From a virus (lineage: Duplodnaviria; Caudoviricetes), in the IMG/VR virus record IMGVR_UViG_3300027566_000003: a stretch of DNA of 64,000 nt; one strand, given 5' to 3'. Position numbers and translations under genes: made by a program. Below the pieces are notes generated by a model, which saw only the letters and a list, made by a program, of their open reading frames with translations, did not search any database and was not told the DNA's origin. Positions 6,468 through 54,093 of the stretch are shown piece by piece (within the stretch, counting starts at the first letter, position 1; every line of letters begins with the position of its first letter).

Positions 6468-6653
6468 ACAATATAATATATTATTATAAATTCTAAGATT
6501 TAAAAGATGGATATAATTTAATATTTTTACAGTAGATAAGGCACATCATTAATTTGGTGTGTCTGGATGTATTGTAAAAATACAATACAAAATAAAATTA
6601 ACTGACTTTAATATTTAGAGTTTAGTCAGTACTCTAGAAAGGATGATTAAAAA

Positions 6654-22772: not shown

Positions 22773-23297
22773 ATGTCAAATAAATTTGTTGATTATGTTG
22801 AACTTAATGGTGTGGAAAAAATAATCAATTATTTAACAAGCTATATTATACAAAATGATAATATATGCAAACTTTTAAAATACAACGATGAAAATGCTTT
22901 ATCTTATTCTTTAACAGATGAAGATAGATATATTTTAATAGACTCAAATCCAATAAATAAAGATAATCGTAGAATATACTTTCAACCATACATTAATAAA
23001 ACAATAATAAAAGAGCAAACAGAACTACGTATATATCCTGCAAGTTTTGATATTGAGACTAGGGTTTTGGGAAAAGTTTATTTAGCAATAGATATAATTT
23101 TACATAATGATTTATGGGATTTAGTTGATTCAAGAATTCGTCCTTTAGCATTGCTAAATGAACTTTTAATTTCACTTAATGGTACTAATGTTGAAGGCAT
23201 AGGTCTTCTTAATCTTGAAAAAGAAAGAATCTCATTAATTGCCTATAATGATTATATTTCTGGTTATCGAATCATCTTGTGTACTAGGGTAGTTTAG
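22773..23297 (+). CDS. Putative tail terminator/completion protein
   Basis: Position and IDIILHNDLW and RPLALL pattern. Confidence 0.55.
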   Translation: MSNKFVDYVELNGVEKIINYLTSYIIQNDNICKLLKYNDENALSYSLTDEDRYILIDSNPINKDNRRIYFQPYINKTIIKEQTELRIYPASFDIETRVLGKVYLAIDIILHNDLWDLVDSRIRPLALLNELLISLNGTNVEGIGLLNLEKERISLIAYNDYISGYRIILCTRVV

Positions 23298-23298
23298 T

Positions 23299-24213
23299 AT
23301 GGATATGTCGCAGTATGAACAATATTTAATCTATAATAAACCCATCCCTTATATGTCAGAAAAATCATTAAAAAGAAGACAAGAAATTGAAAATGAAATT
23401 ATTAAATTAAATAACAATAAGACATTTAATGAAAACAATGATGAAGAAATAAAATCTAAATTATCTCAACTACAAGAAGAATATGAAAAACTAATATTAT
23501 TAATCTATCCAGTAAAAATGATTGATTATCTTCGTTTTTACACGTCTGTTAATTGTTTATCCTTTGATAAAAATAAAATTCCTGACCCAAAAGTAATATC
23601 TATGAGTTATTTAGATTTTATTTTTCATTTAATAGAAAATGATCCCAATGGAAAATATTATGCATTGATGTTGTGTGACGTTTTAAATTTATGTTGCAAA
23701 ATTGAAATTAATAAAATTAGTTATCGAAAAAGCGAAACCGGAAAAATCAATTTAATTATTGAAAAAGATGAAAATGAAGAAGTAATTAATGCAAACGATT
23801 TTGAAAATATTAAAAATATAATATTAAAACAGAATATTCCTGATTATGATGACTCATATATTGATCCAAAAATAGAAGAAGTTCTAAAAGAAACTGAGGA
23901 ATTTTTAAATAGACATAAAAAGAAAATGGCTTCCTTAGAAGATCAAATAATTTGTGTGATGTTGGCATTACATGAAACAAATGAAGAAAAAATACATAAT
24001 CTTACCATACGAAAATTTTCAAAAATACTTCAAAGATATGACTTTAAACTTCATTATGAAATTTATAAAACTGCTGAAATGGGTGGCATGGTAACATTTA
24101 AACAAGAAATTGATCATTGGATGAGCGAAATTTCAAATAAGAAATATTCTAGTTTTGATAATACTATCGTAGAATATGATGCACTAAAAAGTAAAATAGA
24201 AAGTGCTACATAG
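23299..24213 (+). CDS. Hypothetical tail-module protein
   Basis: 304-aa ORF between the terminator and major tail genes. Confidence 0.7.
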   Translation: MDMSQYEQYLIYNKPIPYMSEKSLKRRQEIENEIIKLNNNKTFNENNDEEIKSKLSQLQEEYEKLILLIYPVKMIDYLRFYTSVNCLSFDKNKIPDPKVISMSYLDFIFHLIENDPNGKYYALMLCDVLNLCCKIEINKISYRKSETGKINLIIEKDENEEVINANDFENIKNIILKQNIPDYDDSYIDPKIEEVLKETEEFLNRHKKKMASLEDQIICVMLALHETNEEKIHNLTIRKFSKILQRYDFKLHYEIYKTAEMGGMVTFKQEIDHWMSEISNKKYSSFDNTIVEYDALKSKIESAT

Positions 24214-24246
24214 GTATATAAATAATATTAAGGAGGAATGTTAATT

Positions 24247-25284
24247 ATGGCAATTAATAAAAAGTTTATTGCTGGAGTGGGAAGAACTTTTAACTATGAT
24301 GCAAACGATAATCTTTTATGGGTAGGAAAAACATTATTAAATAGCGCAATTGATATTACATCATCCCAACAAGAGTTAAGGGCTGGCATTGGAAATTCTT
24401 TACAAATGGTGTATTTTCATTCTGGTAAGTTAGAATTAACACAAGAGGAACAACAATTTAACTTAACAATGATTGCTAATTCTATTGGATCGACTATCAC
24501 AACTGGAGGTTCAGTTTGGGTAGAAGAAACAGTAACGGTTACTGGAGGTGCTGGATCGGTATTAGGCACTCCTATAGCCACATCAACGGGGACAGTGTAT
24601 GGGTGGGTCGAACAAAGCGATGGAACAACTCAAAGAATTACCTTTTCAACCAAGTCATTTTCTGGAATTACTCAACAAACAGGCAATGTTTGTGTAAGAT
24701 ATTATGCAACAAATTCAGCAGCCAGAGTTATTAATGTTAATGCAAATATTATTCCTAATGTTGTTAGGACTGTAATAGAGGCACAAATGTTTTCTGGTGA
24801 TACTAATAATGCAAGCACATCAACTTTAGTTGGTAAAGTCCTTGTAGAAGTTCCAAGACTTCAACTAGACGGAAGTGCTAAATTAAATTTAACAAGTACA
24901 GGTGTTTCTAGTACACCAATTAAAGGTACTGCACTAGCATCTACTGTTGCAGGATGTAGTTCTTCTGGAATTTATGCAACAATTACTGAAGTTTTAGATT
25001 CGGCTAACTGGTATGATGACGTTTTTGCATTGGCTTTGACTGTAGACCCTATTACTTTAACCACCGCTATATCCCCTCTGACAGTAGATTTAAGAGCAAT
25101 TCCCACAAATGGACTTGCGTTTAAACCACCATATGGAGATATTACATGGGCAACATCTGATGCAACTAAATTTACTGTTTCTAATGGAGTTTTAACAAAA
25201 GTTGCCGCCGGAAGTGCAAACTTAAATTATACAATCACCGGGAAAACTTCTATTACAGGTCAAACGGTTGTGACGGTTTCTTAA
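24247..25284 (+). CDS. Major tail tube protein with C-terminal Ig-like domain
   Basis: Thr/Ser/Gly-rich, ITWATSDATKFTVSNG Ig motif, followed by a terminator. Confidence 0.8.
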   Translation: MAINKKFIAGVGRTFNYDANDNLLWVGKTLLNSAIDITSSQQELRAGIGNSLQMVYFHSGKLELTQEEQQFNLTMIANSIGSTITTGGSVWVEETVTVTGGAGSVLGTPIATSTGTVYGWVEQSDGTTQRITFSTKSFSGITQQTGNVCVRYYATNSAARVINVNANIIPNVVRTVIEAQMFSGDTNNASTSTLVGKVLVEVPRLQLDGSAKLNLTSTGVSSTPIKGTALASTVAGCSSSGIYATITEVLDSANWYDDVFALALTVDPITLTTAISPLTVDLRAIPTNGLAFKPPYGDITWATSDATKFTVSNGVLTKVAAGSANLNYTITGKTSITGQTVVTVS

Positions 25285-25343
25285 TTAAATAAATAAAATA
25301 TAAATAATAGAGTTTAACATCCTCTATTATTTATATTGTTTAG

Positions 25344-25766
25344 GTGAATTTTATGAATATATGTGAACACGGAACAATAAAAATAGATAGTATAAATCAA
25401 AGTATATTTTGTAATATATTAAAAGAAAATTGTTGTTTTGTAAGATGGTGTATTATTGAACAGTGTATTTTAAATACAAATAATTATATTAATTGTAAGG
25501 TAAGGATTAACAATATGGTAAAAATAAAAAATAATATAGAAAAAGATAATAACATTAATTTAAATATTATTAATGATTCAAATGAAGAATATTGCAAAGT
25601 GCTTTGGTTAAGAGATAATACATTCGCCATTGACTTTAAAGGGTATGGGATTTCTATTCAAATAGAAAATTTACTTAATAGGGGAAAAATTAAAGAATAT
25701 ATAAAAGTAAAATACGAAAGCGAAATTGGAAAAGAAGATTTTAAAATATTTCCAATTTATGAATAG
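25344..25766 (+). CDS. Hypothetical protein, Cys-rich N-terminus
   Basis: 140-aa ORF. Confidence 0.6.
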   Translation: MNFMNICEHGTIKIDSINQSIFCNILKENCCFVRWCIIEQCILNTNNYINCKVRINNMVKIKNNIEKDNNINLNIINDSNEEYCKVLWLRDNTFAIDFKGYGISIQIENLLNRGKIKEYIKVKYESEIGKEDFKIFPIYE

Positions 25767-25790
25767 TATTTTAGATTTAACAAACTAAAA

Positions 25791-25898
25791 AATGGTTTCT
25801 TATAAATTTGCGCAAATTTATAAGTGTAATTAAGAAGACTATATTATCCGAGATATAGTCTTCTTTCCCATTCTCTGATTCGGGAAGGAGAAAATAAT
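25791..25898 (+). promoter_or_regulatory. Leader RNA motif copy (palindromic hairpin plus RBS-adjacent pseudoknot)
   Basis: AATGG/CCATT closing stem, 26-bp palindrome at 25799-25824, 13-bp hairpin whose loop TCCGAG pairs with TTCGGG before GAAGGAG. Confidence 0.75.
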
Positions 25899-26909
25899 AT
25901 GTTAGAAACTAAAGAGTTAAATATAAAACTTTCATCAAAAAATATTAATTATTATGAACAATTGGGATATAACATTCCAAAATATAAAGACACTAGTGGT
26001 AAACAAAGAGTCAAAAAAGGAACTGAAATAAAAATTAAGATAGAACATTTACCATTACAATCACATAATAAAGTAGATGTTAAATGTGATTATTGTGAAA
26101 AAGTATTTCCAAAACCTTATTATTCTTACATTAATAGCAAAAATACATATGTAGTTAATAAAGATGCTTGTAATGATTGTAAATATATTAAGATAAAAGA
26201 ATGTAATTTAATTAATTATGGATATGAAAATACTTCACAAATACCTGAATATAGAGAACATCTTAGATTATTAAAACGAAATGATTTTGAGAAGGTAAAA
26301 CGAGATTTTGAGAATATGAATTTTACACTTTTGACAACAGAAGATGAATATATTAATTCAAGACAATCTATGAAATGTATATGCAATAATCATCCAAATA
26401 TTATTCAAGAAAAAGAGCATTTCCATACCACAAAAGACGTAGGTTGTAAATATTGTCGGGCAGAAAATATTTCTGGAGAAGGAAATTGGAATTATCAAGG
26501 TGGAATTACTCCACTTCACAACTATCTTAGACAACATATATTGCAATGGAAAAAAGATTCAATATTATTTTATAATGGAAAGTGTGTTTTGACTAATAAT
26601 ACAACGACTATAGTACATCATTTATATTCATTTAATTTAATATTGCAAGAATTAATTCAAGAATTAAAATTAGATATGGATTTTACTAAAATTAAAGTGG
26701 AAGATTTACCGGATGATCAATTAAAGTTATTAAAAGACAGATGTTTAGAATTACATTATAAATACGGGTTAGGTGTCTGTTTGTCCGATAATGTCCACAA
26801 ACTTTTTCACTCACTTTATTCTTATGGCAATAACATTCCAGAACAATTCACAGAATTCCAACAACGTTATAACAATGGAGAATTCACATCTCTCCTATTA
26901 GCAAAATGA
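25899..26909 (+). CDS. HNH-type homing endonuclease
   Basis: CVLT, VHHLYSF, VHKLFHSLYSYGNN; paralogous to 9872-10507 and 56156-56980. Confidence 0.85.
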   Translation: MLETKELNIKLSSKNINYYEQLGYNIPKYKDTSGKQRVKKGTEIKIKIEHLPLQSHNKVDVKCDYCEKVFPKPYYSYINSKNTYVVNKDACNDCKYIKIKECNLINYGYENTSQIPEYREHLRLLKRNDFEKVKRDFENMNFTLLTTEDEYINSRQSMKCICNNHPNIIQEKEHFHTTKDVGCKYCRAENISGEGNWNYQGGITPLHNYLRQHILQWKKDSILFYNGKCVLTNNTTTIVHHLYSFNLILQELIQELKLDMDFTKIKVEDLPDDQLKLLKDRCLELHYKYGLGVCLSDNVHKLFHSLYSYGNNIPEQFTEFQQRYNNGEFTSLLLAK

Positions 26910-27164
26910 AAATATTAATAAATAAACTCACAAATAAATAATTATAGATAATGTACAAATCTATAATTATTACCAACAAACAAAAAAACAACTCACAAAA
27001 CCAACAACAAAACATCAAAATATAAGGGGAGGTGGAATGGACATAAAAATCCATCTTACCTCCCCTTATTTTTTATTTTTCAATAAATCTATATTCCAAA
27101 CAATAATCTCAAAATCCAAAGAATCTAATAATCTAAGAATCAAAAAAGAAAGGGTGAAAATACT

Positions 27165-27521
27165 ATGTCAGTAAGAGCACATTGGGTTTTTCATAATGTT
27201 GCTACAGAAGCAGGTAATGGAGATGAATACAAAATTGCTAATGTTGGATCAAACACAATATTAGTTTTAGCATTGCAAACTATACCAACAGTCGAATCAA
27301 CACCAGTAACCTACACTATACATTTTGAAGCAAAAGGATTAATCGGTGATTATGTTTCTATACCAGTTTGGGATGAAACAAAAATGGATTTAGTCCTTAG
27401 TGCTACAGAAACAAGTGGTAAATTGTTTACAATCGATTTAACAGGGAAATCAAGTTTCCGTGTGAATCTTGTTTCTATAGATGGTGGGAGTTTAAGTGTT
27501 CAAGGGAAGGTGATTGAGTAG
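27165..27521 (+). CDS. Small beta-sandwich virion-associated protein
   Basis: Similar pattern to the N-terminal domain of 36189 (FHN/MHT, DG, SVQG/TVTG). Confidence 0.6.
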   Translation: MSVRAHWVFHNVATEAGNGDEYKIANVGSNTILVLALQTIPTVESTPVTYTIHFEAKGLIGDYVSIPVWDETKMDLVLSATETSGKLFTIDLTGKSSFRVNLVSIDGGSLSVQGKVIE

Positions 27522-30500
27522 ATGGTAGATTTAATTGCTCGTGGTTTATCAAAAACAAATGCTATAAAATATGGCACCATAGGCATAGACACAGTTCAAT
27601 CTATACCAGACACAAGTATCATTAGATTCAACTTAGTCAATGGAATGTTTTTTGATTGGGATTTATCATCTACAGACACAATGTTTAGATCAACTTATGA
27701 TACAAATAATAATGGTATAGTTGACAAATCAGAAAAACTAAAAAATAGTACAGATTCTACATTTAATGATGGAAATTATTATTTAGATCGTACTAATCAT
27801 ACAGGATTCGATACAGCAAATAAAATAACAGTTAATAAAACTAATCTTATTGAAAATCTTGCAACGTTTACAGGCACTACATTACAAGATTTAATAGATT
27901 TTATAGATTCTCTTGATACATTTAAAAATGGTGAATTAAATCTTGGAACAAAAAATGCAGTGAATTCATGGAAAATTATAAAAGAAGATGATGATTTATC
28001 ATTTTATAGATATGATGAATATAATTCTCAATATAATTTAATTACTAGTTTTGGAGCATCCGTAAAATCCGATAAATTCATATTGACGGAATGGCAAGGG
28101 AGTATCCAAGGTTTAAAAGGAGATGGAACTTCAAGAACTTTATTGAAAACATCAGTTGATGATAATGGAGTTTTAATTGGAAATTATTATGGTCGTGCTG
28201 GTTTAATTAGTAATGGATTATATTTTTCTATGTATCCAACTGGCGTTGATTCTACATTTGTTTTAAATTCATGTACTGATTCTGAAGGAACTTCTAATGC
28301 TCAATCAATAACAAAGTTCACAACAAGATATCAGCCATTAGTACATGGTTTTTATACTGGAATTAGTGGACTTGATTTAATATCTGTTCCAAGTGGTACA
28401 ACTGTTCGTGTATGGGTTGAGTCAGATGACCAAGACGACATAATGTTTGAAACTATAAATTATATAAATTTTAAAAAGGGATTAGGCTTATCAGTATCTA
28501 TTGGTGTAAATAACATTGTTTTTTATGAACCATTCCCAATTGATAAAGATACTCCCTTTTATTTAAATATAGAATTTAGCAATGCCGTAACAATTAAAGG
28601 GTCTATTACTAACAATAATCAAGTTGGAGATCCGAAATTTTATCCTATGGGCAGTATTATCAGAGAAACTGCTGCATTTGAAAAATTAGCGACTCAAGAT
28701 TGGGTTACTGAGAATACAAAGAAAACTGACAGTATGACAACAGATAGTAGTATATTATATGCTTCTGCAAAATCAGTATCTTCATTATCTAAGGTTGTAT
28801 CTGCTATTTCTGGTGGTGCATCTCCATTGGTTCCGATTTCTTGTGAAGACTTTTCATTGCTACAAACTGGCACAAATGGACAGCATTATATTTTTACCAA
28901 TGATGGGATAATAAATACTCAAATAATAAGTAAACGTGATCATTGCTATGTAGTTGAAACTTTTGATTATACGGAAATTTTACCGACTCAATATATACAA
29001 GAAGAAGATTATGTTGTAATTTCAAATGAAGTTGTTTCAAATGGTGCAATTTTTATTACAAATATTACACCTAACACTTTAGGTAAAAATGTAAGTAAAA
29101 CTATGAACGATTATCCTAATGAAGCAACAATAAATAGTATTGCATCCGATGATGATACATGGACAGTTACAGTAATTTGGGATAGAGGGTCAGAAGAATA
29201 TTGTGGTCAACCTAAAGTTAATGGTATTGATGTAATAAATATTACAAATGTTGGTGGAGGAACTTTTACCGGAACAGTGATAGTTACAACTAGCGAAATT
29301 ACTGATAATGCAATAACCGCAACTTTTGGAACAGCAAGTTATAGAGTAGGTGTAGTTGTAGAAACTCCTCCAATAATTACAACATTAACACTAAATAATA
29401 CTCCAACTGATTATCCCATATCTTCATGGTCTGTTCAACAAACAGAGGTTAAAGTTGGAGACATTATGACATTTGATATCATATCGGATAAAGATATTGT
29501 TGCTGTGGAGGTAGCATCTTATGGTGCAGGATCATCTAAAATTATAAATGTAACACAAGGTGCGACATTTACTGATTTAACATTTACGGTAGCATCTACT
29601 GGTTTAGTATCATCTAGTAAAACAATTAAAGTACGTGTGAAAAGTCCTACTGGGTCTTGGTCTGATTATGTAGAAAGTTCAAATAGTATTATATGCAATG
29701 ACTTAACTCCTACAATTAGTGTGAATACAATAACATATCCATCAACTCAAACTGCATTAAAAAATAGCGAAACTGCAAGTGTTACATTTAATACTTCAAA
29801 TCAAACAAGTGTAATTGTGACTGCTATTGGTTCAGATATTTCAATAAGTGGAGTTAATTCTACTACTGGTGCTTTTACAGCAACTAGAATTGGTGGAAGT
29901 TATGTTGATAATATTGATAATTTTACTGGTGTTGCTAGAAAAGATAGTAACGGTTCAAGTGTAAGTGTAAATGGATGTATTTTTATTGCAAATATCGCTC
30001 CTGTATTGTCTTCACAAAGTTTATTAACTTATAATGTAATGTCGGGCGTTGGCACTGTTACAAATACCCTTACTTTTAGTCAAAAGGTAAAAATTAAAAG
30101 TATTTCAGCATTAACTGCCGGAACACTGGTAACTGGAACAACTTCGACTTATACAACAACATATGGATTAGGTATATCGGCACAATCCTCAGATACACAT
30201 TCTAATACAGCAAATACAACAAATTTAGTAGTTACAGGACTTAGTGGAATTGATTCTGTAAGTATTCCAATCAACTATTATATTAGAGGATTTGCTAATA
30301 TTGTTTTGAATTTTACTTACTCTGAATTATCAAAAGTAATTGGAACTATGGTTACAGATGTTACTAAGTGTGTAGTATCAGGAAAAATATTAAGTACGCC
30401 AATATTCGAAATTGCTAAAGAATATATTACTTATTCCAGTGTGGTTTTAGCTACTGCTGATAAATGGAGTATAAGTGCAGATGGTTTGAATTTCTTAATT

Positions 30501-30572
30501 CCAGATGCAGTAAAATCATTCGGATATACAACGGGAGTTGATTGTGAGATTAACATATCTGAAATTTATTAA
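27522..30572 (+). CDS. Large tail fibre/receptor-binding-like protein
   Basis: 1016 aa, Thr/Ser-rich, STYDTNNNGIVD and YYLDRTNHTG fibre-type motifs. Confidence 0.65.
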   Translation: MVDLIARGLSKTNAIKYGTIGIDTVQSIPDTSIIRFNLVNGMFFDWDLSSTDTMFRSTYDTNNNGIVDKSEKLKNSTDSTFNDGNYYLDRTNHTGFDTANKITVNKTNLIENLATFTGTTLQDLIDFIDSLDTFKNGELNLGTKNAVNSWKIIKEDDDLSFYRYDEYNSQYNLITSFGASVKSDKFILTEWQGSIQGLKGDGTSRTLLKTSVDDNGVLIGNYYGRAGLISNGLYFSMYPTGVDSTFVLNSCTDSEGTSNAQSITKFTTRYQPLVHGFYTGISGLDLISVPSGTTVRVWVESDDQDDIMFETINYINFKKGLGLSVSIGVNNIVFYEPFPIDKDTPFYLNIEFSNAVTIKGSITNNNQVGDPKFYPMGSIIRETAAFEKLATQDWVTENTKKTDSMTTDSSILYASAKSVSSLSKVVSAISGGASPLVPISCEDFSLLQTGTNGQHYIFTNDGIINTQIISKRDHCYVVETFDYTEILPTQYIQEEDYVVISNEVVSNGAIFITNITPNTLGKNVSKTMNDYPNEATINSIASDDDTWTVTVIWDRGSEEYCGQPKVNGIDVINITNVGGGTFTGTVIVTTSEITDNAITATFGTASYRVGVVVETPPIITTLTLNNTPTDYPISSWSVQQTEVKVGDIMTFDIISDKDIVAVEVASYGAGSSKIINVTQGATFTDLTFTVASTGLVSSSKTIKVRVKSPTGSWSDYVESSNSIICNDLTPTISVNTITYPSTQTALKNSETASVTFNTSNQTSVIVTAIGSDISISGVNSTTGAFTATRIGGSYVDNIDNFTGVARKDSNGSSVSVNGCIFIANIAPVLSSQSLLTYNVMSGVGTVTNTLTFSQKVKIKSISALTAGTLVTGTTSTYTTTYGLGISAQSSDTHSNTANTTNLVVTGLSGIDSVSIPINYYIRGFANIVLNFTYSELSKVIGTMVTDVTKCVVSGKILSTPIFEIAKEYITYSSVVLATADKWSISADGLNFLIPDAVKSFGYTTGVDCEINISEIY

Positions 30573-30584
30573 TTTGTAATAAAA

Positions 30585-30688
30585 ATGGTTGTCTAATAAG
30601 GTTGCAAATTTATTAGACGTAAAACAAGAGTCATGCTGTCACATGACTCTTTTCCATGTAAAACTTTTTGACAGAAAAGGAGAAATAA
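30585..30688 (+). promoter_or_regulatory. Leader RNA motif copy
   Basis: ATGG/CCAT closing stem, hairpin with TTGCAA loop, 10-bp hairpin whose loop CTGTCA pairs with TGACAG before AAAAGGAG. Confidence 0.8.
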
Positions 30689-32161
30689 ATGAAAAAAGAT
30701 TTATATAAACATATAGATTTAACTAATATACCAAAAAATAAAAGCAGATATAATTGGTTAAATTCTATCGGTAAAGAATGTAAATTTATATATGATGATA
30801 TTTCTGGTTATGTTACAATAGTTGATTATAATTATAAGAAGCATAAATTGTATATTAAATATCTCGATAATGAGATTTTTGAAATTAATACTGATAATTT
30901 TTCTGATTGTGCTTTTGGTAAATTGTTAGGAAAAATAACTAGTGAATTTAAAATTAAATTAGGCAAAACTATAAAAAACAAAAAACAAGATTTTATTATT
31001 ATAGACAGGGAAAAACATATAAGTGCGAATAATAAGTGTTTTGATAAGATATATAAATATCATTGTAATAAATGTGGACATGAAGATTGGTTAATAGAAC
31101 ATAATTTATTAAAAGGAATTGGATGCTCCTGTTGCGGTATAACTCCTAAAAAAGTTATTGAAGGAATTAATGATATCCCAACAACTGCCCTTTGGATGGT
31201 TAAGTATTTTCAAGGTGGATACGATGAAGCAAAACTATATACAAAATCAAGCAGTAAAACAATTTTCCCGATTTGTCCTGATTGCGGAAGAATAAAGAAT
31301 AGACCTATGTCTATTAATTCAATTTATACAAATAAAACAATAAGGTGTACTTGTAAAGACGGTAGGAGTTATCCAGAAAAAATAATGTTTAATATATTGG
31401 AACAATTACATATTGATTTTTTAAGTGAATATTCTCCAGATTGGATTAAACCATTAAGATATGATTTTTATTTTGAATTAGGTAATAAAAAATATATTGT
31501 CGAAATGGATGGTGGTATTGGTCACGGAAATAAAGTAGTATATAATAATTCAATATATACCGTAGAATATGCACTAAACATTGATAATTATAAAGATAAC
31601 CTAGCAAATATTAATAATATAGATATTATTAGAATTGACTGTAAAATTTCTGATATAGATTATATAAAAACTAATATATTTAATACAAAATTGTTAAATA
31701 TATTAGAACTTTCAAGCATTGATTGGATAAAATGTGATGAATTTGCTTTAAGTAATTTAGTAAAAAAAGCTTGTGAAATAAAAAAAGAAAACGAAAATTT
31801 ATCAACATCTGATATCGGTTTATTATTACATTTAAATCGTAGTACAATATGTAAATATTTAAAAGAAGGAAGTAAATTTGGTTGGTGTAATTATAATCCA
31901 AATAATGAGAGAATGAAATCGTTAGGTCATAAAGTAAATATTAGGAAAGTTGAGGTATTTAAGAATGATACATCTTTAGGAATTTTTGAAAGCACAAATG
32001 ATATAGAAAGAAAAAGTGAAGCTTGCTTTGGAGTAAAATTATTACAGTCTTGTATATCTCTAGTTTGTAATGGTAAACAAAAATCACACAAAGGATTTAT
32101 TTTCAAGTATATAAATAACGAAAACCAAGAAGTGGTTAATAATTTATCCACTTCTTTTTAA
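30689..32161 (+). CDS. Putative homing endonuclease (Zn ribbons, DUF559/Vsr-like nuclease, NUMOD1)
   Basis: RYDFYF and IVEMDGGIGH motifs, CNKC and CPDC, C-terminal NUMOD1-like GIFESTNDIER and SHKGFIFKY. Confidence 0.8.
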   Translation: MKKDLYKHIDLTNIPKNKSRYNWLNSIGKECKFIYDDISGYVTIVDYNYKKHKLYIKYLDNEIFEINTDNFSDCAFGKLLGKITSEFKIKLGKTIKNKKQDFIIIDREKHISANNKCFDKIYKYHCNKCGHEDWLIEHNLLKGIGCSCCGITPKKVIEGINDIPTTALWMVKYFQGGYDEAKLYTKSSSKTIFPICPDCGRIKNRPMSINSIYTNKTIRCTCKDGRSYPEKIMFNILEQLHIDFLSEYSPDWIKPLRYDFYFELGNKKYIVEMDGGIGHGNKVVYNNSIYTVEYALNIDNYKDNLANINNIDIIRIDCKISDIDYIKTNIFNTKLLNILELSSIDWIKCDEFALSNLVKKACEIKKENENLSTSDIGLLLHLNRSTICKYLKEGSKFGWCNYNPNNERMKSLGHKVNIRKVEVFKNDTSLGIFESTNDIERKSEACFGVKLLQSCISLVCNGKQKSHKGFIFKYINNENQEVVNNLSTSF

Positions 32162-32186
32162 TGTAAAAATAAAGGAGGTTAAAGTA

Positions 32187-34742
32187 ATGTCAATGACTAG
32201 TGACCAAATTTATGATTGGATTGTAGCCAATTGGACTTCAAAATCAAATTATAGAGAAAGTGCTGATGTTGGTATTCCAACAGATACACCATCTCATTTT
32301 TTAATACATAACGATATTACAACTAAAAAAATATATACATGGGATGGAAATACGTGGTCTGCTGGATTAGGTGGAGGATCTGGTTCATTGACTGTTCAAA
32401 ATGTAGCATCTGCAACAAATATAATAACTGCATTTAACAAGTTAATTTTAGTTGATGCATCATTGAATAATGTCACAGTAATTCTACCATCTTCTACATC
32501 ACTAACTATTGGACAGAGTTTATGCGTAAAAAGAACTGATAACTCAAATTATACATTAAGAATAATTGCTAATGGAACTGAAATAATTGATGGTAGTACA
32601 AATTCTATCTATTTATACGGGCAAAATGATTGTGTGACTTTAACTAGCACAGCAGTTGGTAAAATACATATTAGTGCTGATAATCGTAATAGTACAGGGT
32701 CAAGTGCAAGTTATTTAAAAGTAACTAGAGGAACAACAGTTGCAATTGCAGATAATACAAATATAAAATTTCCTACTGTCGAGGATTCCCAAGGTACTGA
32801 TATTTCATATGATACATCTACAGGAATTGTTAAATTAAAAGCAAATATTAAATATAGACTTAGATGTGCAATTAATATGATGACATTTTCATCTGATAAT
32901 GCTTATGCAGAGTTAAAATTTTATAACATAACAGCATCACAATTTGTTGGAATTTCTGGTTCCGCAAATCCAATCACAAGAAATACTAATGAAGCTAAAA
33001 TTTTAGAAACAGAATATACTTTTACTCCAATTGTTGAAACTCAAATATCTCCTAGATTAACAGTTTCTTCTAATATTTCTAGTATTACAACAGCTTGGTT
33101 AGAAGTTGAAGAAATAAGTCACCAAGCTACAGTAATTCAAACTGTAGACTATTGTTTTGCAAGAGTTACTTCTAATGTTACTACTGCAAATACTATTATT
33201 CCAGTTTCTCTAGTAGTTGGAAATATTGAAGTATCAAATAATATGTTTTACCTGAAAGTAGGTAGCACATATGAGTTAGAAGCATTTATAGAGTTTAATG
33301 GGAATACTGGTTCTGTTTGGGCAGAATATGTTTGGACTGATTCTGTTGGAACTTATTTACCAACTAGTACTACAGGTTTATCTGTTCCTGTACAAAGTGC
33401 GTCAGCAGATTCTAGTTTACCAACAAAAGCTATTATTACTCCTACTCAAAATATGTCAGTAAAAGTAATGACAACAGGTACTGTTGCAGGTATTACTGGT
33501 ATAGCACTTACTAGGTCATATTTTAAAATTACGCAAATTGGATCAACGGCATGTACAGATAGTATTACCTTAAATACCATTAACTCAACTTCTTCATCAG
33601 GACTAAATGTTCATACTAAAAATACTATTACACCGACAAAATTAGGTGTAACAAATGAATTTGTTGGACAAAATGGTTCTGGTTCTGATTATGAAATTAG
33701 TGCGCTTAATTTAGGAAATGATATGTTTTATGCTTCTGTTTCAACAAAAATACCAGTTGGTGCATGGGGTGATGGTTGCAGAATGGATTTTAGTACACCT
33801 GCTGGTTCGAATAGTAATGTTCAGATTCCTAGAATGAGTATATTGCCGTTTTCAGGGAATGTGGGAATTGGTACAACCGAACCAAATATTAATGATAAAG
33901 TAACCATTAAAGGTACGACTACTGATGGAACAACTAATATTATCAATGGGTTAGATAACAATGATATATCTGTATTTAAAGTAGATACTAACGGAAAATT
34001 AACAACCAATGATGTTGTTACTAATATAGTCAGTACGGCTGATGGAACTAATGGTTATGTAACAATGAATTCTGGTGGTACTAGGACGGGTTTTTTTGAG
34101 TGGAAAAAACCAGATGATACAAGATTAGGGTTTATGGGAGACGGAGAATTTGATATAAATCTAGCATTAGAAAATGATGCTAATTTTAAGATTGTTAGTA
34201 CTACTGGTGGATTTCTTGTACCAAAGATGACGAGAGCACAAAAAGATGCGATTATTTCTCCTATTTCTGGACTTGAGGTGTATGTGACAGATGAAAGTTC
34301 TGGTAAGTATATTTATAACGGCACAAGATGGGATAAAGTTAGCAACCTTGCATATCTAAAAGCAAGTAATATAGTGGCAGTTAATCCAGCAGCTAATATA
34401 TTACTTAACTTCAGTTCAGGTGTTGTGTCAAATGGGATTAAAACCAATCATGGTAATGGACAGTATACACTGTATCCCGGGGTTTATGAATTAATGGGGG
34501 TACAACTCTTGAATGAAAATGATGCTGGAATAAGTTATCAATTTTATAACTACACAACATCTAGTTATACAGGTGAACAAGGTAATAATGCCGATGTTGC
34601 AGGGTCAGCAGGAACAGGAAGTCCTGCATTTGCTATATTGGAATGTACAGTTGACACACAGATCGGACTTAGATGCACAAACGATAGCGCGACAGTTACG
34701 GCCTCATTGGGTAACTGGTTGAAGATTAGACAGATATCATAG
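32187..34742 (+). CDS. Tail fibre-like protein with repeated C1q/BclA-like domains
   Basis: VTVILPSS and IIDGS fibre motif, GNVGIGTTEP, three jelly-roll-like repeats. Confidence 0.65.
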   Translation: MSMTSDQIYDWIVANWTSKSNYRESADVGIPTDTPSHFLIHNDITTKKIYTWDGNTWSAGLGGGSGSLTVQNVASATNIITAFNKLILVDASLNNVTVILPSSTSLTIGQSLCVKRTDNSNYTLRIIANGTEIIDGSTNSIYLYGQNDCVTLTSTAVGKIHISADNRNSTGSSASYLKVTRGTTVAIADNTNIKFPTVEDSQGTDISYDTSTGIVKLKANIKYRLRCAINMMTFSSDNAYAELKFYNITASQFVGISGSANPITRNTNEAKILETEYTFTPIVETQISPRLTVSSNISSITTAWLEVEEISHQATVIQTVDYCFARVTSNVTTANTIIPVSLVVGNIEVSNNMFYLKVGSTYELEAFIEFNGNTGSVWAEYVWTDSVGTYLPTSTTGLSVPVQSASADSSLPTKAIITPTQNMSVKVMTTGTVAGITGIALTRSYFKITQIGSTACTDSITLNTINSTSSSGLNVHTKNTITPTKLGVTNEFVGQNGSGSDYEISALNLGNDMFYASVSTKIPVGAWGDGCRMDFSTPAGSNSNVQIPRMSILPFSGNVGIGTTEPNINDKVTIKGTTTDGTTNIINGLDNNDISVFKVDTNGKLTTNDVVTNIVSTADGTNGYVTMNSGGTRTGFFEWKKPDDTRLGFMGDGEFDINLALENDANFKIVSTTGGFLVPKMTRAQKDAIISPISGLEVYVTDESSGKYIYNGTRWDKVSNLAYLKASNIVAVNPAANILLNFSSGVVSNGIKTNHGNGQYTLYPGVYELMGVQLLNENDAGISYQFYNYTTSSYTGEQGNNADVAGSAGTGSPAFAILECTVDTQIGLRCTNDSATVTASLGNWLKIRQIS

Positions 34743-34767
34743 TAATTAACAAAATAATAAATTAAAT

Positions 34768-34875
34768 ATGGTTACTTAATAAGAGTCGACGCTTATTAAG
34801 TGTAAAACGAGAGACTATGCCGTTACATAGTCTCTTTTCCATTATATTTAATCTCAATGACGGAAGGAGAATAAA
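34768..34875 (+). promoter_or_regulatory. Leader RNA motif copy
   Basis: ATGG/CCAT closing stem, hairpin with GTCGAC loop, 10-bp hairpin whose loop CCGTTA pairs with TGACGG before AAGGAG. Confidence 0.8.
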
Positions 34876-35796
34876 ATGGGGAGAAAACTAACTAATGAGT
34901 TTATTAAAATAGGTGTCGAAAAATTAGGTTATAAATTAGCAAGTACATATGTTGGTCAATTAACAAAAATAACCATATATGATGAATTAGGATATTATTA
35001 TGTTGTTGGAGCAAAATCATTATTAAAAAATCATATTCCAGATAAATTTCATTTATTCAATCCTTACACAATACAAAATATAAAATTATGGGCAAAATTA
35101 AATAATAAACCTTTTGAATTATTGAGTGATACATATGAAGGAAGTGACAAATATCTTCGATGGAAATGTTTAAAGGAAGATTGCAGAGAAGAATTTGATG
35201 CAACTTGGAATAATATTATTAATAATAAAGGTTGCCCCTACTGTTCTGGGCATAAAGTAGGATTATCTAACTGTCTAGCAACTAAAAATCCAGAACTTAT
35301 AAAAGAATGGAATTTAATTAGAAATGGTAGTTTAACTCCTTTTGACGTAACTTGGTGTAGCGGAAAAGAAGTTTGGTGGAAATGTAAGAAATGTAATCAT
35401 GAGTGGAAAGCGAGAATAAGTAATAGAACTAGCACTAATAAAACAGGTTGCCCAGAGTGTAAAGAACCAAAAGGTGAAAAAGAATGTAAACGAGTTTTTG
35501 ACTTAAAAAATGTTTATTATATACCTCAAAAAGAGTTTGATGGTTTAATTGGATTAAGAGGTGGTTTATTATCTTATGATTTTTATTTACCTAAATACAA
35601 TTTATTGATTGAGTATCAAGGAGAATATCATGAATTTCAACAAAGCCATGTAAGTGAAAATAAATTTAAAACTCAACAAGAACACGACAGAAGAAAAAGA
35701 GAATATGCAAAAGACAATAATATTAAACTTCTAGAAATATGGTACTGGGATATAGATAAGATTGAAAAAATTCTTGAAAAAGAATTGTTTATATAA
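34876..35796 (+). CDS. Putative homing endonuclease (DUF4379-like Zn ribbon plus DUF559-like nuclease)
   Basis: NCLATKNPELIKEW and VWWKC motifs; YDFYLPKYNLLIEYQGEYH. Confidence 0.85.
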   Translation: MGRKLTNEFIKIGVEKLGYKLASTYVGQLTKITIYDELGYYYVVGAKSLLKNHIPDKFHLFNPYTIQNIKLWAKLNNKPFELLSDTYEGSDKYLRWKCLKEDCREEFDATWNNIINNKGCPYCSGHKVGLSNCLATKNPELIKEWNLIRNGSLTPFDVTWCSGKEVWWKCKKCNHEWKARISNRTSTNKTGCPECKEPKGEKECKRVFDLKNVYYIPQKEFDGLIGLRGGLLSYDFYLPKYNLLIEYQGEYHEFQQSHVSENKFKTQQEHDRRKREYAKDNNIKLLEIWYWDIDKIEKILEKELFI

Positions 35797-35819
35797 TCAA
35801 CATTAATTATAAGAAAGGA

Positions 35820-36128
35820 ATGATAAAAATGCGTAACTATAAAAGTAACTTCTTCGGCGACAAAGGTACATCAAGCTCTAACCTCGAAGTAATCCAAAAG
35901 TGGAAAGAAGTGCAAACCAACAATAATATTTCTGCTGTATCTTTTAATTTTATACCATCACAAGATTGTACAATCATAATCAATGGTTCACATCCTATAC
36001 CATTTTTAGCAAACCAACCATTTGTCATTGATACATCAGGTGCAAATCCTACACATAAACCGATTTGGCAATTTCAAATTGTCGAAGCTGGAATTGATTA
36101 TTGGTATATGGGAATATTAAAAGATTAG
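35820..36128 (+). CDS. Small hypothetical virion-associated protein
   Basis: 102 aa, RBS GAAAGGA. Confidence 0.65.
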   Translation: MIKMRNYKSNFFGDKGTSSSNLEVIQKWKEVQTNNNISAVSFNFIPSQDCTIIINGSHPIPFLANQPFVIDTSGANPTHKPIWQFQIVEAGIDYWYMGILKD

Positions 36129-36188
36129 TTTAGTGAGTAATTAATTATAACAAAATTATAAAAATAAAGAGTAAAGGAGTGATAAATA

Positions 36189-37871
36189 ATGAGTAATGGG
36201 CTTTTTCAAAATTCAGGAATAATACAAACTACTTTTCCAAGTGCTCAACCAGTTGCGATTGTTGGAAATTTAGCGGATGTTGCAGTAGATGAAAATGGAG
36301 CCATAGCTGTTTCAGGAATAACAGTAGATTCGCTGTCTATTGGTGATGTAGGGTTAAAACCGAGTTTACCATCTGCAAATTTTACAATGCATACTGGTAC
36401 AACGGCTATCAGTGATGGTATTGATCTAAATGTAGATGGTTATACAACAGCTATCATTCGTGTTTCTGGTACATTTAAGGCTACAATTAATTTTTTGGGA
36501 ACAAGTGATAATATATATTATAATCCAGTAATGGCATATAACTCGGTTACCGAATTACCCTCTACTAAAGCACAAGTAAGTGGAATTTACTACATTAATT
36601 GTGTCGGAATTAAAAAAATACGAGTAAGGGTAGATGTATATTATTCAGGCACAGTAACAGTAACTGGAATTGCGTCAGTTAACGCACCAAAAACTCAAAC
36701 TGCAAGGATTGTTAATACATCTTCTGTTCCTGCGATAACCCGTAAAACTTTATCAGCATACCCTAAAAAACCTCTAGATTACTCCGTTATTAATTCCTCC
36801 ACATATGGAACCGTAATACATGTGTCTAGTATTGGATTTGATGGTTCTTTATATGGCTATTCATCTTTAAAAAAAATATTTAGAACAGCAGATGCTTTTG
36901 CTACGGCATTGGATTATGGACAAGATTTTTCCGGATTAATACCATCTACATCTAGTTTGTTACATGTGTTTCAAACTCATGCAGGATATGTTGTTATAGA
37001 AACCGACTCTACAACAAAACGTGGTGGTATATGGTTTTCAACAACTTTTACAAGTGGTTTTACAAAAATAGTTGAAATGGATAGAGGATATCCTATTAAA
37101 TTAAACACAAGTATATACAATGCTGGTGTAAATCAAACGGTAATTTTATGTGGAGAATATGTAATAACGTCTCCAAATCCAGCATCAGGTGGATTGAGAC
37201 TATTTGGTAGTTTTGATGGTGGTGCAACATGGGTTTCACTTAAAGAAACAGTATTGGTAGATAGTGTATATAATAGCCATTGGCACGCATCAACTTATGA
37301 TCCTTATGCTGGCAGGATTTATGCACAAACTGGTGATGCTACTAATGCAATGCTTTATTATTCTGAAGATTTAGGACAAAATTGGAATGAGATAAGAGCA
37401 ACAGATGAAAACGGAGTTCTCCCCCAACCAACTACATTAATATCTTTTCCTGATATTATCACCGCGCTTCCAGATAGAGGATATCCTCCTTGTGTTTTAT
37501 CAATTAAAAAAGATACAAATTATAAAGATATAAATGGAGAAAAGTTCTTATTTTCATTGGATTATTCTATATATCCAGCATTTGGAACTGGTGCTGGAAA
37601 ATATACTGGTAGGCCAATTGCTCAAGATGGCATCGAAGCGTATTTTCAAGTACCTACTGTAACGGGACATCAACAAATATTTGTTGTTGGGACAGCAGAC
37701 GGTGGGCAAACTTGGCACACCGTATTAGTATTGAATTTATCTAGATATGCAAGTGGTAATGCTAATGAAGGGATAGTGGGACCTGATAAAAATGGGTTTC
37801 TTTATATGTATTATAATGACAACGGGGCAAAAATAGCAAAAATTACTAAGCAAAATTGGATATATAGTTAA
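36189..37871 (+). CDS. Asp-box (BNR) beta-propeller protein, sialidase/glycanase-like
   Basis: SFDGGATW, SEDLGQNW and TADGGQTW Asp-boxes. Confidence 0.8.
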   Translation: MSNGLFQNSGIIQTTFPSAQPVAIVGNLADVAVDENGAIAVSGITVDSLSIGDVGLKPSLPSANFTMHTGTTAISDGIDLNVDGYTTAIIRVSGTFKATINFLGTSDNIYYNPVMAYNSVTELPSTKAQVSGIYYINCVGIKKIRVRVDVYYSGTVTVTGIASVNAPKTQTARIVNTSSVPAITRKTLSAYPKKPLDYSVINSSTYGTVIHVSSIGFDGSLYGYSSLKKIFRTADAFATALDYGQDFSGLIPSTSSLLHVFQTHAGYVVIETDSTTKRGGIWFSTTFTSGFTKIVEMDRGYPIKLNTSIYNAGVNQTVILCGEYVITSPNPASGGLRLFGSFDGGATWVSLKETVLVDSVYNSHWHASTYDPYAGRIYAQTGDATNAMLYYSEDLGQNWNEIRATDENGVLPQPTTLISFPDIITALPDRGYPPCVLSIKKDTNYKDINGEKFLFSLDYSIYPAFGTGAGKYTGRPIAQDGIEAYFQVPTVTGHQQIFVVGTADGGQTWHTVLVLNLSRYASGNANEGIVGPDKNGFLYMYYNDNGAKIAKITKQNWIYS

Positions 37872-37954
37872 TAAACAAATTAATTGATTTTATTACAAAG
37901 GCATGACTTATTTGGTTGTGCCTTTGTTTGATATTTGATGATATGGAGTGAAAT

Positions 37955-38491
37955 GTGATAAAGAATCAACAAAAGTACATACACGCATACGATTTATCTA
38001 TGGAATCAACAGGATTTTGTATATTTGATAAAGATATGATTCCTGTATTAATCGATTCTATCCCTACTAAAAAAAACCAATCTCATGGGAAAAGATTAAA
38101 AGTAATTTATGATAAGTTAATGGAATTAAGAGATAAATATCCACCTGAAGTCGTCGTGATCGAAAGAGGATTTAGTAGGTTTAATATGGCAACTCAGGTG
38201 ATATACAGGGTTCATGGAATTTGTCAATTGGCTTATCATGATATAGAGACCGTCTACTACCCTCCCAAAACCGTTAAAGAAGCAATTTTAAGTGGTAATG
38301 CAACAAAGAAACAAGTGCAAGAGGAAATTAAGAAAAGATATCCTGATTTAGTTTTTAAGAATGAGGATGAATCAGATGCTTACGCTGTAAGTTTAACATA
38401 TTTTATTAAAACAGGTAAATTGGAATGGGAAAAAGATATTATTTTGAAAGAAAAGAAAATTAGAAAGAAAAAGGTTGTTGAGGATAGATAA
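37955..38491 (+). CDS. ruvC: RuvC Holliday junction resolvase
   Basis: AYDLSMESTG, VVIER and DESDAYAV catalytic motifs. Confidence 0.9.
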   Translation: MIKNQQKYIHAYDLSMESTGFCIFDKDMIPVLIDSIPTKKNQSHGKRLKVIYDKLMELRDKYPPEVVVIERGFSRFNMATQVIYRVHGICQLAYHDIETVYYPPKTVKEAILSGNATKKQVQEEIKKRYPDLVFKNEDESDAYAVSLTYFIKTGKLEWEKDIILKEKKIRKKKVVEDR

Positions 38492-51536: not shown

Positions 51537-51620
51537 TATATTTATGTGGAAAACATCCTACGTATTACGCAGGATGTTTTTAATTGGTAAAAATAAGGAA
51601 TATAAAAGGAGGAATAAATT

Positions 51621-53897: not shown

Positions 53898-54093
53898 TGC
53901 AATTATAGATATTATGTACCCATGCGTTAGTGGGGAATTTAAGCCTTTAGAGTGTTAAAAAACTTTAGTAGTATTAGAAATAATATGAAAAAGAACACGA
54001 TGAATAAGGAATGAAACATAAAGTTATAAATTATGTATTTATTTTATAATTTCTTATAAGTTTTCAGTAACGGTATTTTTATGCCCTAATATA
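53898..54093 (+). ncRNA. omegaRNA scaffold and IS607-like right end plus guide
   Basis: GTACCCATGCGTTAGTGGGGAATTTAAGCCT scaffold ending TTTCAGTAACGG (GG at 54072-54073). Confidence 0.65.

Follow-up and report, generated by a model that had tools for sequence, protein, structure and literature searches.

A covarying RNA leader of phage homing-endonuclease genes and its possible role in restraining their translation

Among the selfish genes of large phages, homing endonucleases are the commonest, and to our knowledge little is known, beyond the T-even phages, of what keeps them harmless to their carrier. This question arises at a locus of a Caudoviricetes genome (IMG/VR record IMGVR_UViG_3300027566_000003; the 64,000-nucleotide (nt) stretch analysed, hereafter the window, is part of a 122-kb contig with a completeness estimate of 66%), where three endonuclease genes are each preceded by a similar leader of about 110 bases: (i) do these leaders constitute an RNA class of their own; (ii) do they travel with the endonuclease genes; and (iii) what might they do for them? 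A preliminary description of the window, made from its letters alone, had proposed a dedicated regulatory RNA with a pseudoknot next to the ribosome-binding site. We determined that the leaders do form a distinct class of conserved structured RNA, as 66 distinct copies were collected in which two hairpins, and a pairing between a hairpin loop and the bases in front of the Shine-Dalgarno sequence (SD), all covary. As to function, the leader is, judged by its anatomy, rather probably a cis-acting translational brake of free-standing homing-endonuclease cassettes.

Three leaders in the window

The leaders lie on the + strand where the preliminary description had placed them, each running to the start codon of an open reading frame (ORF), and the fixed words ATGGTT, GTAAAAC (GTAATT in copy 1), TTTCC(C)AT and AAGGAGA were found in them as stated. 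The pattern ATGGTT..GTAA..TTTCC occurs three times in the window, where 0.18 occurrences are expected, and none of 100 shuffles reaches three. The architecture comprises a closing stem of 4 base pairs (bp), P1 (AUGG/CCAU), around two hairpins, P2 (~10 bp) and P3 (10–14 bp), with the conserved word GUAAAAC or GUAAUUAA as the junction between them (J2/3). Downstream of P1 (8–20 nt) come a CU-rich tract, then a 6–8-nt complement of the P3 loop (the partner) and, at once, the SD. Single-sequence folding returned both hairpins in all three copies (z -3.3 to -5.0), as had been proposed; of the three minimum-energy folds, only that of copy 2 contains the closing stem ATGG/CCAT, which was also part of the proposed common fold. 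The loop/partner pairs agree in full with the preliminary description: TCCGAG (25847-25852) with TTCGGG (25879-25884), CTGTCA (30636-30641) with TGACAG (30669-30674), and CCGTTA (34820-34825) with TGACGG (34858-34863).

The features of the three copies are listed below; L numbers denote related loci. Bit scores are those of three covariance models, a type of analysis that the preliminary description had recommended: one of the core P1, P2 and P3 (R1); a rebuilt model (R2); and a full-length model with P2, P3 and P4 only (R3), P4 being a short hairpin at the SD.

25773-25791, + strand: A/T-only box 5' of copy 1, with the family consensus AATAAATAATTACAT; inter-leader similarity ends here on the 5' side, blastn similarity to L222 beginning at 25773
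25792-25898, + strand: leader copy 1, whole (P1-P2-P3 core 25792-25872, then linker, partner and SD); R1 82.1, R2 79.3, R3 53.3 bits
25799-25824, + strand: P2 hairpin of copy 1, apex GCGC (25810-25813); the entire arm is a perfect palindrome
25826-25831, + strand: junction word GTAATT (J2/3) of copy 1; GTAA is invariant in the alignments
25832-25865, + strand: P3 hairpin of copy 1, 13 bp, loop TATCCGAG (25845-25852)
25871-25876, + strand: CU-rich anti-SD TTCTCT of copy 1
25879-25884, + strand: partner TTCGGG of copy 1, abutting the SD AAGGAGA (25885-25891)
25899-26909, + strand: endonuclease gene 1, 336 amino acids; phrog_12131 ('homing endonuclease'), phrog_5104
30585-30688, + strand: leader copy 2, whole; R1 81.6, R2 71.6, R3 107.2 bits
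30591-30618, + strand: P2 hairpin of copy 2, apex G-TTGCAA-A, palindrome at 30602-30607
30619-30625, + strand: junction word GTAAAAC of copy 2
30626-30651, + strand: P3 hairpin of copy 2, 10 bp, 6-nt loop CTGTCA (30636-30641)
30664-30679, + strand: P4 hairpin CTTTT/AAAAG of copy 2 in minimum-energy folds; its 6-nt loop TGACAG (30669-30674) complements the P3 loop exactly
30677-30683, + strand: SD AAGGAGA of copy 2, overlapping the 3' arm of P4
30689-32161, + strand: endonuclease gene 2, 490 amino acids; phrog_4538, phrog_9084 ('homing endonuclease')
34768-34875, + strand: leader copy 3, whole; R1 94.8, R2 80.7, R3 99.4 bits
34774-34801, + strand: P2 hairpin of copy 3, apex A-GTCGAC-G, palindrome at 34785-34790
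34802-34808, + strand: junction word GTAAAAC of copy 3
34809-34836, + strand: P3 hairpin of copy 3, 11 bp, 6-nt loop CCGTTA (34820-34825)
34852-34855, + strand: anti-SD TCTC of copy 3
34858-34863, + strand: partner TGACGG of copy 3, abutting the SD AAGGAGA (34864-34870)
34876-35796, + strand: endonuclease gene 3, 306 amino acids; Pfam DUF4379 treble-clef zinc finger, phrog_559, phrog_9084

Wherever leaders share a contig (the window; also L300, L351 and L388), their P3-loop/partner pairs and P2 palindromes are always different. The copies in the window would therefore be mutually orthogonal, as their loop/partner pairs differ and their P2 palindromes are GCGC, UUGCAA and GUCGAC.

Covariation and spread of the leader family

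The covariation in homologues that the preliminary description had called for was found in P2 and P3, which are 96–98.5% paired (97.4% of cells) across 25 distinct sequences; all of their 21 base pairs change on both sides, in an alignment that was fitted to the model, which favours structure. Pairing falls to 38–52% upon sliding of the 3' partner columns. Since G-U pairs far outnumber A-C pairs (27:2 in P2, 21:0 in P3), the fold belongs to the endonuclease-coding strand, as expected of an RNA. P1 is nearly invariant, the first pair being G-U in all three copies that begin with GUGG and U-A in two of the four that begin with UUGG, and because of this invariance its comparative support is thin, so that we consider P1 plausible. 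The most conserved parts of the leader are the junction words UGGU(U), GUAA (as GUAAUUAA or GUAAAAC) and UUCC(C)AU. As the MAFFT alignment of full leaders was poorly registered, model-based alignments were used for annotation.

The first P1 base is A in 56 copies, U in 4 and G in 3, and because it is never C the leader always opens with a possible start codon (AUG, UUG or GUG). A conserved mini-ORF beginning there was considered and rejected: the frame runs for 2–13 codons, closes in P2 or J2/3, and is not conserved.

The pairing between the P3 loop and the bases preceding the SD covaries as well. Among the first 25 leaders, 24 have a contiguous loop/pre-SD duplex of 6–10 bp and one has a duplex of 5 bp. 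When 64 copies were considered, 53 had a duplex of at least 6 bp, as compared to 11% for loops swapped between leaders sharing no 4-mer; the duplexes are of 41 different types, and the 3' end of the partner lies 0–2 nt before the SD in 47 copies. Several of the eleven copies with shorter duplexes are gene-less leaders or reflect wrong automatic SD calls. In an R3 alignment of 67 hits (A10), which was not fitted to this pairing and into which the pseudoknot was written afterwards, the six pseudoknot pairs are 71% paired, compared to 60.7 ± 1.6 in shuffles (0/500 reach the observed value) and 25–38% when the columns are slid. Furthermore, 60 pseudoknot cells are changed on both sides, compared to 29 ± 4.7 in shuffles. 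As longer loops are mis-registered in A10, its pairing count is conservative. The loop/pre-SD pairing is real and is kept by compensatory change; examples are CCGAUA/UAUCGG, CCAAUA/UAUUGG, CUGUCA/UGACAG, CUGACA/UGUCAG and CUUACU/AGUAAG.

The P2 apex follows a different rule, being self-complementary in nearly all copies: a palindrome of at least 4 nt is present in 61–63 of the 64, according to which of two counting methods is used, and a hexamer in 43. The apex sequences are UUGCAA (25), UUCGAA (19), GCGC/UGCGCA (11), GUCGAC (2), UAGCUA (2) and GGCC (2), and all palindromes have a GC or CG centre despite the A/T-rich genome. Non-pairing, mostly purine flanks surround 38 of the 43 hexamers (G..A 25, A..G 9, G..G 2, A..C 2). 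P3 apexes, by comparison, are palindromic over 2–4 nt only. A T-loop, which had been considered as a general rule on account of the UUCGAA loops, was rejected because UUGCAA, GUCGAC, GCGC and GGCC misfit; self-complementarity fits all of them. Such self-complementarity is not required by an intramolecular hairpin and matches the format of kissing-dimer loops.

Models R1–R3 together gave 97 matches (66 distinct) in contigs of uncultured phages and metagenomes, nearly all of them immediately 5' of ORFs of homing-endonuclease type; only the three copies described above were detected in the 122-kb record. The loci of relatives were reached through their endonuclease proteins and through whole-record scans of their contigs, and each leader from these endonuclease-relative loci again lies immediately 5' of an endonuclease-like ORF. 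Further copies came from exact-word scans filtered with R2, two narrow ones of viral contigs and one of metagenome contigs; a wide-gap scan of viral contigs gave chance matches only, none of them confirmed by the model. One exact pattern matched 42 loci in 185,579 representative prokaryote genomes and R2 confirmed none, which is no evidence of absence because the pattern covers only the GTAATTAA/TTTCCCAT subtype. Among GenBank phages, a megablast search with the region had no match, and blastn with leaders 1 and 3 gave one 34-nt chance match.

The earlier suggestion that the leader belongs to no named Rfam family was sustained: a search of Rfam 15 gave no family at the leaders at gathering thresholds, and no match to leaders was obtained at E ≤ 10 over 25500–35200 or at E ≤ 1 in 11 other leader-bearing loci. 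Literature searches found no description of such a leader.

An A/T-only box of the AATAAATAATTACAT type occupies the 15 nt before leaders (e.g., 25777-25791 and 34753-34767) and is weakly conserved at -15 to -1 in 24 leaders from unrelated contexts. It includes a -10-like AATAAT about 5 nt 5' of the first P1 base, and for this reason the leader may initiate its own transcript. As a general phage promoter the box was rejected, since it is not enriched in the window (26 matches, 19.8 ± 5 expected).

Endonuclease cassettes, solo cores and the 3' module

The ORFs downstream of the leaders match PHROG families annotated as homing endonucleases. The preliminary description had called the three genes in the window unrelated, one HNH and two DUF559-like. 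The assignments did not hold, none of the three matching Pfam HNH or DUF559 at E ≤ 0.01; the lack of relationship stood insofar as BLASTP found no significant pairwise similarity, but genes 2 and 3 share PHROG families 9084, 4538 and 7140. An ORF of at least 100 amino acids lies behind 57 of the 64 leaders, and the leading profile families are all of homing-endonuclease types, in at least four nuclease groups (GIY-YIG/NUMOD, HNH/EndoVII-like, phrog_559/9084/DUF4379 and phrog_12131/DUF7487). In the alignment of the ORFs behind these 57 leaders (A11), one ORF matches Pfam OrfB_IS605 (TnpB-type, E = 1.8e-10) and two have HypA-type zinc-ribbon profile matches.

By blastn, the leader is shared as a unit between loci, from about 19 nt 5' of P1 to about 17 nt inside the ORF, and the gene bodies differ. 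In five carrier contigs, homologues of the sheath gene of this phage and of the neighbouring gene are lacking. In the relative L328, whose sheath protein is 44% identical, the spacer from the sheath gene to the next gene is 17 nt and contains neither endonuclease nor leader; since this empty allele lacks both, leader 2 arrived with gene 2. The diversity of nuclease groups, the carriers without a homologue of this sheath and the joint absence in L328 thus bear out the proposal that the leader travels with homing-endonuclease genes. It is a portable RNA module, with strong comparative support, common to nuclease genes with unrelated catalytic folds, and the sharing of one leader among unrelated nucleases implies a common regulatory need and an exchange of regulatory parts between cassettes.

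Profile matches identify a virion-protein-like gene (24238-25284) and a tail-sheath-like gene (27522-30572) flanking the endonuclease cassettes. Cassettes 2 and 3 lie inside the row of structural genes, with spacers of 25–32 nt, and the genes upstream of the three leaders terminate 12–25 nt 5' of P1. A related-locus search with the sheath protein gave no matches.

At its 3' end, cassette 1 carries two further hairpins:

26937-26971, + strand: 3' hairpin of cassette 1, 9-nt loop AA-TGTACA-A with a self-complementary hexamer
27021-27080, + strand: strong hairpin of cassette 1 followed by a T run (terminator-like by eye), flanked on either side by C/A-rich spacers; it is conserved in L222-L226 and L328

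They are part of a 3' module (26937-27164) that consists, in this order, of the AA-palindrome-A hairpin, a C/A-rich spacer, the terminator-like hairpin, a spacer and the SD of the next gene (AAAGAAAGG). The module recurs after some endonuclease genes (L222 2990-3340, L223 4490-4660, L224 4520-4650). The loops of the 3' hairpins are AA-(TGTACA, TTGCAA, TAGCTA or TACGTA)-A, and this hairpin family has 17 members, all on the leader strand, in 387 kb of leader-bearing loci, compared to none in 1.3 Mb of control loci. Both the P2 loop, in its hexamer copies, and the 3' hairpin have a self-complementary apical 6-mer with unpaired, mostly purine flanks, as in loops of the HIV-1 DIS type.

Four loci contain solo cores that have no SD, partner or endonuclease:

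L328:4842-4920, - strand: solo core, intact
L276:4529-4606, + strand: solo core, decaying
L356:2665-2746, - strand: solo core
L357:71-147, + strand: solo core

The L328 core occupies the site equivalent to cassette 1, and the 3' module (there in reverse complement) follows it directly. L276 has the same junction of core and 3' module, but with a decayed P2 apex and an inverted P3 loop (TATTAGG for CCTAATA). We read these two cores as probable remnants of gene loss, although the intact core of L328 may still act in trans.

A possible brake on translation and its alternatives

In local folds of most copies, a short hairpin between anti-SD and SD, P4, encloses the partner in its loop; P4 is absent from the preliminary description. 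The 5' arm of P4 is provided by the CU-rich tract of the linker (UCUCU, CUUUU or UCCUUU), which lies 0–3 nt 5' of the partner and is complementary to the SD or its 5' edge. In leaders of the copy 2 type, P4 is CUUUU/AAAAG and its 6-nt loop is exactly complementary to the 6-nt P3 loop. Because the partner sits in the P4 loop, the 'pseudoknot' would be an intramolecular loop-loop kiss over the ribosome site. The SD core is predicted to be unpaired at 0.33, as compared to 0.45–0.54 in 41 control genes of the window (p = 0.02 and 2e-5). We consider the support for P4 moderate.

Because an anti-SD:SD hairpin carries the partner in its loop, the geometry points to repression rather than activation. 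The CU-rich tract would pair with the SD to form P4, whose loop would then kiss the P3 loop; this contact would lock the weak P4, yielding a compact fold on or against the SD, so that the 30S ribosomal subunit would only rarely gain access, even on abundant polycistronic structural-gene transcripts. That such transcripts are abundant is probable because cassettes 2 and 3 lie in the structural-gene row. The brake might be released by simple leakiness, in a shorter transcript, or by a factor that binds the conserved junction or the P2 loop.

Several observations count against a brake of this kind. P4 is short (4–7 bp), and its mean length of 5.5 bp is not clearly above the 4.7 bp of composition-preserving shuffles. 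It is 79% paired, with CG, UA and UG variation, in an alignment that was itself fitted to P4, and in the CUUUU/AAAAG class it covers just the 5' edge of the SD. By analogy with IncI/IncB repZ, a pseudoknot adjoining the SD can also activate. The conserved junction and the self-complementary P2 loop would have no role in a plain brake, and the intact L328 core has neither P4 nor SD nor gene. Furthermore, the sequences come largely from a few sample series, so that the counts are not independent events, and the listed runs that hold the sequence comprise one groundwater metagenome DNA run only and no RNA run.

A regulated switch or sensor is the alternative that survives best, although we consider it fairly unlikely. 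Binding of a protein, small molecule or second RNA copy, either at the three-way junction (UGGUU, GUAA, UUCC(C)AU) or at the P2 loop, would set whether the P3–P4 kiss forms; self-complementary P2 loops would dimerise the leader at high RNA concentration. Such a function would suit junction words that are nearly invariant among variable helices, a P2 apex that has kept its self-complementarity through six different sequences and the non-pairing flanks of 38 of 43 hexamers, P3 apexes that are palindromic over no more than 2–4 nt, and an AA-palindrome-A hairpin that recurs on the same strand 3' of the genes. However, a metabolite pocket would have few conserved nucleotides to draw on, the palindromic centres could partly reflect template-switch mutation in inverted repeats, and ligand, protein and dimer are all hypothetical. 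We likewise regard it as unlikely that the leader is more than a static brake in that the P2 loops and 3' AA-palindrome-A loops pair endonuclease transcripts (concentration sensing), and/or that the P1–P3 core acts in trans via its P3 loop. If this were true, a phage with a solo core but no nuclease, as L328, could silence the matching endonuclease of another phage in the same cell, which would be an RNA-based immunity against homing.

The IncI-alpha/IncB system, which the preliminary description had invoked as an analogy, needs a translated leader peptide and an antisense RNA against the same loop, and its pseudoknot activates translation. Were the phage leader an activator of the repZ/repA kind, the pairing of the P3 loop with the pre-SD bases would open or present the ribosome site and be needed for translation. 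The analogy holds in that a hairpin loop pairs directly 5' of the SD, and the core GGAG lies outside P4 in the CUUUU/AAAAG class. It fails with regard to the leader peptide, the short and unconserved frame from the first AUG, UUG or GUG stopping in P2 or J2/3 and the upstream genes ending before P1; the leader also differs in having no known antisense RNA. Moreover, as the partner is in the P4 loop and not in the stem, the pairing needs no opening of P4. An activator is therefore decidedly unlikely.

It is quite improbable that P3 is a terminator or attenuator, or that the core is a small RNA ending at P3, in which cases the loop/pre-SD pairing would act in read-through transcripts or in trans only. 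P3 is indeed a 10–14-bp hairpin followed by UUUU, L328 has an intact core without gene or partner, and a solo core with a loop matching the partners of other leaders could act in trans. However, a terminator scan of 23000–38000 (G+C-containing stem, at least 5 T in 8) lists no + strand P3 in the three copies, since merely four U precede the conserved CC(C)AU (tail TTTTCC(C)AT). An efficient terminator would also be polar on the structural genes, as cassettes 2 and 3 lie between such genes with 25–32-nt spacers, and the second solo copy, in L276, is decaying.

A self-cleaving ribozyme, or a ribonuclease processing site, that excises the endonuclease mRNA from a polycistronic transcript is very improbable. 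The compact pseudoknotted fold with conserved junction nucleotides, the quasi-continuous helix of more than 20 bp that P3, the kiss and P4 would form if stacked, and the presence of a RAGATH-18 RNA in the same window are compatible with it, but no Rfam ribozyme matched 25500–35200 of the window (E ≤ 10) or the 11 other loci (E ≤ 1), and no cleavage site is marked.

Least credible is an element acting as DNA (in recombination, nuclease recognition or single-stranded DNA hairpins), for although P2 forms an almost perfect inverted repeat centred on a palindrome and the cassettes bear hairpins at both ends, the stems have 48 G-U to 2 A-C pairs, the asymmetry of the AA...A loops falls on the coding strand in every case, the covarying pairing is tied to the downstream gene's SD, and the palindromes differ among copies, so that no single protein site is conserved.

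Known systems resemble the putative brake in part. Kissing complexes include HIV-1 DIS (loop AA-GCGCGC-A), TAR-TAR* and ColE1 RNA I/RNA II. Leaders of the copy 2 type, with 6-nt loops fully complementary to each other, resemble TAR-TAR*, and the P2 loops, as R-hexamer palindrome-R, and 3' hairpins, as AA-hexamer palindrome-A, have the DIS format; in contrast to these complexes, the P3–P4 kiss would be intramolecular and next to the ribosome site. That P2 may dimerise is read from the sequence pattern.

In T-even phages, hairpins that sequester the ribosome-binding site of endonuclease genes limit translation on long late transcripts (PMC2988022). Those of I-TevI, I-TevII, I-TevIII, segB and Aeh1 mobE are, like the leader, SD-involving RNA structures immediately 5' of a phage homing-endonuclease gene; likewise, their genes are on long late transcripts, and their presumed purpose is to limit translation (PMC2988022). 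However, the T-even structures are gene-specific single hairpins with an embedded late promoter that yields a shorter, open transcript, whereas the leader is one modular RNA for many nuclease families, with a three-way junction, a covarying loop-loop contact and an apical loop that is self-complementary; an embedded promoter was not identified in it. In the T-even hairpins the SD lies within a very stable stem; P4 alone reaches -3 to -8 kcal/mol, in an energy model that does not include the kiss expected to stabilise it, and the SD core of the leaders is less accessible than that of control genes. By this comparison, the leader may work like the T-even hairpins, yet with its different architecture it is no member of that set. 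The 5' untranslated region of IS200 tnpA has a stem-loop that hides the SD. IS200 is similarly a selfish element that throttles its own nuclease/transposase by mRNA structure at the SD (PMC4513863); it differs in using a simple stem-loop and a cis-encoded antisense small RNA, and its sequence and architecture are unrelated to those of the leader.

The specificity-bearing loop pair of the leader is reprogrammed per copy, in 41 versions that are all different within one genome; should the leader be a brake, this would amount to a natural set of orthogonal kissing-loop translational controllers like those designed in synthetic biology. The self-complementary loops, in turn, raise the possibility of RNA dimerisation in the mRNA of a bacterial virus.

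Other intergenic hairpins of the window (6614-6638, 51543-51564, 54021-54052 and others) have loops with 6–9-nt complements 5' of the next start codon; they are mostly A/T-rich and chance-like, and are outside the leader family according to the covariance models. A window-wide family of loop/RBS (ribosome-binding site) leaders was rejected, as a scan of all intergenic hairpins gave, beyond the endonuclease leaders, A/T-rich duplexes of chance quality only. The RAGATH-18 RNA (Rfam RF03064) is at 53944-54011 on the + strand, with 56.5 bits compared to a gathering score of 44.9; the RAGATH family set was discovered via association with genes near twister and hammerhead ribozymes. A tRNA gene lies at 1758-1829 on the + strand (Rfam tRNA, 55.9 bits).

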